IMG/VR virus record: IMGVR_UViG_2690316348_000005 | DNA length: 8,265 nt | Origin: a virus | Taxonomy: Duplodnaviria > Heunggongvirae > Uroviricota > Caudoviricetes | Direction: 5' to 3' (one strand) | Part shown: in pieces, positions 283 to 7,178 of the stretch | How positions within the stretch are numbered: the stretch's first letter is position 1 | How the letters are laid out: each line of letters starts with the position of its first letter | Made by a program: the position numbers and the translations under genes | The notes under the pieces: generated by a model | Told to the model about the DNA's origin: nothing | What the model saw: only the letters and a program-made list of their open reading frames with translations | Databases searched by the model: none

Positions 283-450
283 ATGACCACTATTACCAAA
301 GAACGTATTGAATTGTTCATTAAAAACCCGCTTGAAAACGGGCTTACCCGTGGTGAACAAATGGAACTGGCACGGATTGCGCTGGCATCGCTGGAAGCAG
401 AGCCGGTTGTGTTCTGGTTTGAAAAATATCAAGAAGGGGCTACGGCATGA
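283..450 (+). CDS. Hypothetical small protein, 55 aa (not in the supplied ORF track because it is under 60 aa)
   Basis: ATG at 283 preceded by a consensus AAGGAG Shine-Dalgarno at optimal spacing. Stop TGA 448..450 overlaps the next ATG (ATGA). Shares an N-terminal MTTxT and an IAL(A/V)SL(E/A)AEP motif with the following ORF. Confidence 0.5.
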
Positions 451-791
451 CGACTTTTACCAGAGAGCAGTTAATAGCTCACGCAGAGGAGACTATTGAA
501 GCACAGAGACTGTGCATACCGGGCACAATCGACCATGACATCATCCGCACATATAAGATGGATATTGCTGTTCTGGAAATCGCACTGGTATCGCTGGCAG
601 CAGAGCCAGCCGGTAAATTGCATGAATACAAACCAGTGGGATATCAGCGTCTGGTCGATGAGTTAACCATGCTGGTAAAGCAGTTAACCTGGCAACTGAG
701 GAAAGCGAAGCCAGACTGCAAATTACCGGATAAGGCGATGAGTTATCTGGAGCGGAACGGACTGATAAGCGTGGAGGATATTTTACGATGA
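447..791 (+). CDS. Hypothetical protein, 114 aa; paralog-like to the 283..450 product
   Basis: ATG at 447 overlaps the upstream stop. Shared motifs with the preceding ORF. Position is typical of small nin-region genes in lambdoid phages. Confidence 0.5.
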
Positions 792-871
792 CCTGGCCTG
801 AAGCATTAACAACGGTAGGAATTGCGATGGCGGTGGCGCTGGTGGTGTATTCGATTTGCCGCTGGGGATAA
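788..871 (+). CDS. Possible 27-aa hydrophobic peptide ([27 protein letters not shown]), translationally coupled to the upstream gene
   Basis: ATG 788..790 overlaps the TGA 789..791 of the upstream ORF (ATGA). One predicted transmembrane-like hydrophobic stretch. Very short, so coding status is uncertain. Confidence 0.25.
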
Positions 872-5744: not shown

Positions 5745-5820
5745 GGCCCTTTAGCTCAGTGGTGAGAGCGAGCGACTCATAATCGCCAGGTCGCTGGTTC
5801 AAATCCAGCAAGGGCCACCA
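5745..5820 (+). tRNA. ileZ: tRNA-Ile2-like, anticodon CAT (presumed lysidine-modified, reads AUA)
   Basis: Manual cloverleaf: 7-bp acceptor GGCCCTT/AAGGGCC, D-arm with GG, anticodon loop CTCATAA, T-loop TTCAAAT, encoded CCA. Overall resemblance to E. coli ileX. The Ile-versus-Met call rests on that resemblance. Confidence 0.8.
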
Positions 5821-5827
5821 TCACATA

Positions 5828-5904
5828 CCGCCATTAGCTCATCAGGAAAGAGCGCCAGCCTTCGAAGCTGGCTGCGCGGGGTTCAAGTCCCCGATGGCGG
5901 TCCA
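5828..5904 (+). tRNA. argN: tRNA-Arg, anticodon TCG
   Basis: Manual cloverleaf: acceptor CCGCCAT/ATGGCGG (C1-G72), anticodon stem CCAGC/GCTGG, loop CTTCGAA, T-loop TTCAAGT, encoded CCA. The gene symbol is by position in a 933W-like ileZ-argN-argO cluster and is tentative. Confidence 0.75.
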
Positions 5905-5917
5905 TTATCTGCATCAT

Positions 5918-5994
5918 GCGTTGTTAGCTCAGCCGGACAGAGCAATTGCCTTCTAAGCAATCGGTCACTGGTTCGAATCCAGTACAGCGCGCCA
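5918..5994 (+). tRNA. argO: tRNA-Arg, anticodon TCT (reads AGA)
   Basis: Manual cloverleaf: acceptor GCGTTGT/ACAGCGC with a U4-G69 wobble, anticodon stem ATTGC/GCAAT, loop CTTCTAA, T-loop TTCGAAT, encoded CCA. The gene symbol is by position and is tentative. Confidence 0.8.
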
Positions 5995-6928: not shown

Positions 6929-7004
6929 GGCCCTTTAGCTCAGTGGTGAGAGCGAGCGACTCATAATCGCCAGGTCGCTGGTTCAAATCCAGCAAGGGCC
7001 ACCA
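6929..7004 (+). tRNA. ileZ: tRNA-Ile2-like, anticodon CAT, second copy
   Basis: Identical to 5745..5820. Confidence 0.8.
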
Positions 7005-7011
7005 TCACATA

Positions 7012-7088
7012 CCGCCATTAGCTCATCAGGAAAGAGCGCCAGCCTTCGAAGCTGGCTGCGCGGGGTTCAAGTCCCCGATGGCGGTCCA
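7012..7088 (+). tRNA. argN: tRNA-Arg, anticodon TCG, second copy
   Basis: Identical to 5828..5904. Confidence 0.75.
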
Positions 7089-7101
7089 TTATCTGCATCA
7101 T

Positions 7102-7178
7102 GCGTTGTTAGCTCAGCCGGACAGAGCAATTGCCTTCTAAGCAATCGGTCACTGGTTCGAATCCAGTACAACGCGCCA
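7102..7178 (+). tRNA. argO: tRNA-Arg, anticodon TCT, second copy with a Watson-Crick U4-A69 pair
   Basis: Identical to 5918..5994 except G69 to A (position 7171), which converts the U4-G69 wobble into U-A. Confidence 0.8.

Follow-up and report, generated by a model that had tools for sequence, protein, structure and literature searches.

Three short open reading frames (ORFs) follow one another on the + strand of the viral DNA analysed here, at positions 283–450, 447–791 and 788–871, and encode proteins of 55, 114 and 27 amino acids, respectively. The window (the whole stretch of DNA that was analysed, 8,265 nucleotides) is part of a lambdoid (lambda-like) prophage of E. coli. The stop codon of each of the first two ORFs overlaps the start codon of the next within the four bases ATGA (447–450 and 788–791, both + strand). 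The original prediction, which described these ORFs and both overlaps as they are found in the sequence and in the ORF list, read the trio as a toxin–antitoxin-like or superinfection-exclusion module: two paralog-like proteins followed by a membrane peptide. The question raised by this locus is whether the three genes form such a unit and, if they do not, what each of them is.

An identical stretch is present in E. coli MCJCHV-1, where it lies between the replication genes (YdaS/YdaT, a DnaT-like O protein, and P) and DUF968–RusA–Q, and where the trio is the tail of a chain of about 10 short, mostly overlapping genes. The gene order in phage vB_EcoS-689R5 matches that in MCJCHV-1. In the 3′ direction from the trio, the window continues with hok/sok, DUF968, RusA, the Q antiterminator, a DNA methyltransferase and two tRNA triplets. 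With the trio, a dense series of early accessory genes of the ea/nin type reaches its 3′ end; the region is ordinary phage accessory DNA. Farther along the window there are two copies of the tRNA triplet Met(CAT)-Arg(TCG)-Arg(TCT) (5745–5994 and 6929–7178), each followed by a match to the STnc100 sRNA (RF02076; 6691–6842 and 7255–7444), which implies that a block of about 1.2 kb has been duplicated 3′ of the methyltransferase gene.

The gene that precedes the trio encodes 76 amino acids (42–272, + strand, stop codon 270–272) and matches PHROG 1714. Its stop codon is overlapped by the Shine–Dalgarno sequence of the 55-residue ORF, AAGGAG (271–276, + strand, 6 nt before the ATG at 283), which had been recognised from the outset. 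An SD-like GAAGGGG (433–439, + strand) precedes the ATG at 447, and the Shine–Dalgarno sequence of the 27-residue ORF, GGAGG (773–777, + strand), is embedded in the last codons of the 114-residue gene. The tight coupling proposed for the three ORFs is supported by the stop/start overlaps. A scan of the + strand from 1 to 1346 gave no local promoter, and no promoter-like site was found in the scan near 700–900 on either strand. In RefSeq, PGAP annotates the genes for the 55-residue protein (hypothetical protein WP_000207997.1) and the 114-residue protein (WP_000206826.1) and omits the 27-residue ORF.

The toxin–antitoxin system that really exists at this locus had been overlooked: it is hok/sok, a type I locus (913–1238, + strand; Rfam RF01794, 112 bits; Pfam HOK_GEF, E = 3e-23; hokD in PGAP), which starts 42 nt downstream of the trio as a separate unit. 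Its parts, all on that strand, are the hok mRNA leader and sok region (913–1088, by the Rfam match), mok (1026–1238) and hok (1083–1238, by Pfam HOK_GEF), and the terminator scan placed a terminator 3′ of hok (1307–1324). A putative hok promoter, TTGCGG-16 nt-TAGAAT (879–906, + strand), begins 8 nt after the stop codon of the peptide gene; it was placed from the sequence and from the start of the Rfam model at 913, and lies below the threshold of the promoter scan. Hok/sok is a separate cassette with a putative promoter of its own. It and the peptide gene are frequent neighbours, each of which is also found without the other.

Mosaic structure of the two larger ORFs

The proteins encoded by the two larger ORFs share 33% identity across their N-terminal 54 residues (BLASTP, E = 1e-5), and both match PHROGs 60, 660, 3323 and 5117 (E = 1e-19 to 8e-43), the 55-residue protein being assigned by PHROGs 3323 and 60 and the 114-residue protein by PHROG 660 (E = 8e-43). 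A 29-nt direct repeat detected by a repeat search (376–404 and 579–607, both on the + strand, 86% identity) encodes the motif IAL(A/V)SL(E/A)AEP, which is common to both proteins. Judged by these comparisons, their likeness exceeds chance, and the pair had rightly been called paralog-like.

The PHROG matches and the alignment reveal in both ORFs an N-module of approximately 40–55 residues that ends in this motif, referred to here as the hinge; the hidden Markov model of the N-module recognises the 114-residue protein with E = 5e-22. The 238 homologs found for the 114-residue protein, some of which are called EaA or Eaa by their sources, align as an N-module, a variable middle (0 to about 120 residues), and a C-module that is strongly conserved and contains nearly all of the 24 invariant alignment columns in the family. 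The 114-residue protein is a minimal form, in which a variant N-module (residues 1–54) is joined directly to the conserved EaA C-module; this C-module is absent from the 55-residue ORF. DUF551 proteins, HNH endonucleases and MazG-like pyrophosphohydrolases also begin with the N-module, which agrees with the published picture of the Ea22 variants of Stx phages as block mosaics of exchangeable parts (PMC10834534).

The AF2 model of the 114-residue protein is all helical (mean pLDDT 74): the N-module is a helical hairpin modelled with confidence (pLDDT about 90), and the remainder consists of helices. A Foldseek comparison of the model with the PDB gave nothing with E below 1, a comparison of the protein sequence with the PDB gave no match, and neither of the larger ORFs matched Pfam-A or NCBIfam, including Ead_Ea22 and DUF551, at E values up to 1. 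Four ORFs that overlap the pair or lie antisense to it (154–432 on the − strand, 308–499, 471–623 on the − strand, and 496–666) have no PHROG match.

The 55-residue ORF is itself composite. Bases 283 to about 402 encode the EaA/Ea22 N-module, and bases 403–450 are the last 15–16 codons and the stop codon of an HNH-endonuclease gene: they are identical to the 3′ end of the gene for WP_001229296.1 in E. coli strain 48 (locus L095, 2504–2551). In strain 48, a 121-residue HNH-endonuclease gene fills the slot of the 55-residue ORF, before the same 114-residue gene. The identity of these nucleotides to the 3′ end of an HNH-endonuclease gene marks the 55-residue ORF as a recombination chimera, which may be a non-functional remnant.

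In P0050, a natural protein of 101 residues from E. coli and Shigella, the two genes of the window are joined exactly at the hinge repeat, precisely as a deletion between the 29-nt copies would leave them. On the strength of such junctions, the hinge is a site of recombination among members of the family. Taken together, the HNH-tailed chimera and the recombinant P0050 imply that the "paralog pair" captures one moment in the shuffling of modules. That such a pair can arise from shuffling at the hinge is a caution against reading function into tandem arrangements of this kind.

The 27-residue peptide gene

The product of the third ORF (788–871, + strand) has a hydrophobic segment of 18 residues (residues 7–24, Kyte–Doolittle mean 2.2), which bears out its description as essentially one transmembrane helix and predicts a single-pass membrane peptide. 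Its gene is widespread. Of 5426 complete E. coli genomes, 1631 (about 30%) carry it; their 3105 copies include 163 on plasmids, and a single genome has up to 7. It also occurs in 91 phage records (933W, VT2-Sakai, BP-4795 and the virulent phage Av-05 among them) and in at least 535 IMG/VR loci; Stx2 II is a reference Shiga-toxin phage that carries it. Beyond Escherichia, Shigella and Salmonella, the peptide was not found in species-representative genomes or in the protein collection (queried with two peptide variants joined into 54 residues). In the species-representative genomes, matches were confined to E. coli, Shigella and a contig of 431 bp labelled Xanthomonas (L090, NZ_JPLE01000323.1, Xanthomonas pisi DSM 18956), which carries the peptide ORF of the 933W haplotype together with the hok promoter and is most likely E. 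coli or phage contamination. Another unexpected host label is that of PP818812.1 (Actinobacillus phage vB_Apl-pPE4), in which the block of peptide plus hok is 96.7% identical to that of the present prophage.

The ORF is unannotated, leaving a gap of 80 nt, in the RefSeq/PGAP and reference phage records inspected; a few submitters label the product as "prophage protein" or hypothetical protein. In a large protein collection the peptide clusters with DUF551 proteins of 185 residues, which is an artefact of clustering and naming, because those proteins do not contain the peptide. The peptide sequence is in no paper of the searchable literature, and it was not found in the supplements of the Sakai small-gene Ribo-seq study.

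Sensitive blastn comparisons delimit the gene precisely. Stx phages of the 933W type match from exactly 788 onward; BP-4795, JLK-2012, POCJ13 and 18-1-2 match 787–872 only, without the 114-residue gene or hok; Stx2_EH2011 matches 740–872, without hok; and Tritos, Evi and Rac-SA53 carry hok without the peptide. Since the homology blocks end at the start and stop codons, these 84 bases behave as a cassette of their own. The proteins encoded upstream of the peptide elsewhere are of the DUF551, 933W L0139 and MazG-like types, among others, and the 3′ neighbour in other contexts is an intrinsic terminator or a gene that starts a few bases on.

At the 5′ border, at least four unrelated upstream C-termini are found (…ISVEDILR; …PEPPQEVNQ in DUF551; …NIEQEVNR in 933W L0139; …KKKGMNQ). 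The upstream stop codon overlaps the peptide start codon in the form ATGA in nearly all contexts (TGATG or TAATG in two), and all 25 distinct junctions read ATGA at the peptide start. GGAGG is present in 19 of the 25 distinct junctions from other contexts, with partial SD-like matches in the rest.

Conservation of the frame in homologous regions had been set beforehand as the point on which the peptide should stand or fall, and the frame is kept. Variant peptides with an intact frame are 59–96% identical (933W, BP-4795, JLK-2012, 18-1-2, Av-05, a P1-like plasmid, and others), and of the first 87 loci taken, 85 have it intact. Residues W3, P4, E5, A6, R25 and W26 are invariant among the intact full-length variants examined, and V10 and the final G are nearly so. 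The 16 variable sites among 19 close haplotypes are distributed 1/1/14 over the three codon positions (binomial p = 1.2e-5). All pairwise dN/dS values (NG86) are below 1, ranging from 0.04 to 0.8 with many at 0.04–0.15; those between distant groups reach 0.5–0.8, which implies only loose constraint on the transmembrane core. Read in the sense direction, the same DNA yields 9 distinct peptides, as against 34 distinct antisense translations, most of which contain stops. The diverged copies keep frame, start codon, stop codon and Shine–Dalgarno sequence, together with an excess of synonymous change. By this pattern of substitution, 788–871 is a genuine protein-coding gene under purifying selection.

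An antisense ORF (783–950, − strand, 55 codons) with matches to PHROGs 7511 and 19126 was rejected as a gene, as it contains stops in most haplotypes. These two PHROGs derive from Stx-phage records in which ORFs are annotated on both strands, and are probably built on non-genes.

Several irregular copies of the peptide gene were observed. In phage vB_EcoS-689R5 (L001, 4714–4824), codon 2 has a 1-nt deletion and the annotators called a wrong-frame ORF of 36 residues; in POCJ13 (L005, 1501–1584) the copy is disrupted, W3 being a TAG stop codon; and some database entries of the peptide are frameshifted. The disrupted and frameshifted copies suggest that the peptide is dispensable. The length of the transmembrane core also varies, from 27 up to 35 amino acids, by in-frame expansion of a hexanucleotide repeat encoding AM/AV (GCGATG/GCGGTG; entries P0165, P0170, P0178, P0182, P0183, P0184 and P0140), and P0140 (42 amino acids) has a duplication of 15 residues. 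Other variants have differing, often basic, C-terminal tails after RWG.

Possible roles of the peptide

The locus is probably best described as a mosaic EaA/Ea22 pair with a coupled membrane-peptide gene and a separate hok/sok, in which the peptide would act as a small-protein modulator. The peptide would be transcribed with the early (pR/pL-type) operon after induction or infection, having no promoter of its own. At the ATGA overlap, ribosomes that end translation of the upstream gene would re-initiate, or would bind at the embedded GGAGG. The peptide would then insert into the inner membrane with its N-terminus out and its C-terminus in (E5 outside, R25 inside), and would act there during lytic growth by helix–helix contact with a membrane protein of the host or phage. 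The contact surface may be the face of small residues (G11/A13/A15/A17) together with the conserved WPEA and RWG ends. Carriage of the gene by the virulent phage Av-05 (Avunavirus) fits a role in lytic growth.

Perhaps the peptide damages the membrane instead. It would then be a kil- or holin-like toxin with an action like that of type I toxins, made only upon induction and without a dedicated antitoxin, which depolarises or permeabilises the inner membrane for host shut-off or for the timing of lysis. The size and composition of the peptide do resemble those of small hydrophobic toxins, and the gene lacks its own promoter and resides in operons that are normally repressed in lysogens, so that up to 7 silent copies could be borne without harm. 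Against this, the gene is coupled by strong Shine–Dalgarno sequences inside early operons and is also carried by a virulent phage, and a potent depolariser expressed early and at a high level would lower the phage yield. The peptide has no homology to any toxin family in PADLOC, Pfam or NCBIfam; and polymorphism in the length of its transmembrane core (27 to 35 amino acids, in frame) is tolerated. A toxin is thus unlikely, and the strong Shine–Dalgarno sequences in early operons, the presence in a virulent phage and the tolerated expansion of the helix tilt the balance weakly from a pore-forming toxin towards a modulator of a membrane protein.

A more specific suggestion, and quite an improbable one, is that diverse early proteins of the Ea22, EaA and DUF551 types share the peptide as their membrane partner, or tether. 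Coupled to the last gene of the cluster, it would be made in step with the product of that gene and could recruit this protein to the inner membrane. If true, this would be the first mechanistic handle on the accessory proteins of the ea/exo–xis region that bias the choice between lysis and lysogeny in Stx phages.

The view of the trio as one toxin–antitoxin-like or superinfection-exclusion module, with the peptide as effector and the paralogs as regulators, can draw on the coupling of the three ORFs by ATGA overlaps and on the presence of the exact trio in 331 complete E. coli genomes; however, these genomes carry near-identical DNA (at least about 98% among the matches listed) and are not independent evidence. 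The genes do not travel as a three-gene unit: DUF551, L0139-type, MazG-like and other proteins precede the peptide in places where both paralogs are absent, an HNH endonuclease replaces the 55-residue ORF in sister prophages, and the paralogs recombine into a single gene in nature (P0050). The scan gave no promoter for expression in the lysogen, no antisense-RNA signal was seen in or around the peptide ORF (Rfam, promoter scan), none of the three proteins matches PADLOC, Pfam or NCBIfam above threshold, and in these resources no component has homology to type II toxin–antitoxin, defence or exclusion systems; nor are the three genes inherited jointly. Thus, the proposed module is very improbable, having already been largely refuted by the independent assortment of its three genes.

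It is equally hard to sustain that 788–871 is non-coding, i.e., a recombination boundary or linker between phage modules, or an upstream regulatory part of hok/sok. The block does sit exactly at mosaic junctions and often adjoins the hok promoter, and its first five codons, TGGCCTGAAGCATT, scarcely vary, even at synonymous sites. Yet the variation is synonymous and concentrated at third codon positions, the ATG, stop codon, Shine–Dalgarno sequence and frame are retained in every context, and the block without hok and hok without the block both occur. At the level of RNA, the region 770–880 has no unusual folding (z = +0.84), and the Rfam scan matched no family to 788–871.

That the hydrophobic segment serves only as the C-terminal anchor of the upstream protein, reached by programmed −1 frameshifting with no free peptide, is exceedingly improbable: the peptide frame is indeed −1 with respect to the gene before it and has no stop codon in at least the 12 codons that precede its start, and read-through fusion entries after a frameshift exist (P0030, P0156, P0169), but no slippery heptamer (X XXY YYZ) precedes the stop codon at the EaA-type or the DUF551-type junction, an ATG and Shine–Dalgarno sequence at the correct distance are conserved in all junctions, and the fusion entries, which are rare, are singletons that come mostly from automated assemblies.

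Returning to the peptide as a candidate modulator, it belongs to an uncharacterised and largely unannotated family of small membrane proteins, and its two larger neighbours are of already-known kinds. Recording the gene would fix a systematic gap in annotation, including that of reference Shiga-toxin phages, and would add to the list of phage-encoded small membrane proteins a candidate that is clean, widespread and present in Stx phages. The practical gain is modest until a function of the peptide is shown.

Comparison with known systems

The two larger ORFs are related to the lambda Ea22 and P22 EaA proteins (InterPro Ead_Ea22; PHROGs 60, 660 and 3323), whose N-module (MTTxTKE…) is common to both, and whose EaA C-module is carried by the 114-residue ORF. 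Typical members of that family have about 170–300 residues, whereas both proteins encoded here are much shorter and lack the central and DUF551 domains, and the 55-residue ORF differs further in its HNH-endonuclease tail. The position also differs: Ea22/EaA genes lie between exo and xis, but the present pair lies in a nin-like region downstream of the replication genes.

The peptide shares with the Hok/Gef toxins that it is small, hydrophobic, membrane-bound by prediction and prophage-borne, and it adjoins hok here and in phages of the 933W type; as a small hydrophobic membrane peptide it resembles the products of type I toxin genes in general. Unlike Hok/Gef, it has no similarity to Hok, and its gene was found to have no promoter of its own, structured leader, mok-like overlapping frame or cis-encoded antisense RNA, and assorts independently of hok.

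KdpF, AcrZ, MgtS and MgrB are small single-pass proteins of the E. coli inner membrane that modulate larger membrane proteins. The only similarities found for the peptide lie below threshold, to KdpF (E = 0.12) and to DUF883_C (E = 0.029). In its build the peptide is like this class: it has 27 residues, a single transmembrane helix, conserved interfacial residues and a face of small residues, and, like members of the class, it has been overlooked by annotation pipelines because of its size. It is unlike them in being phage-borne and translationally coupled to unrelated upstream genes.
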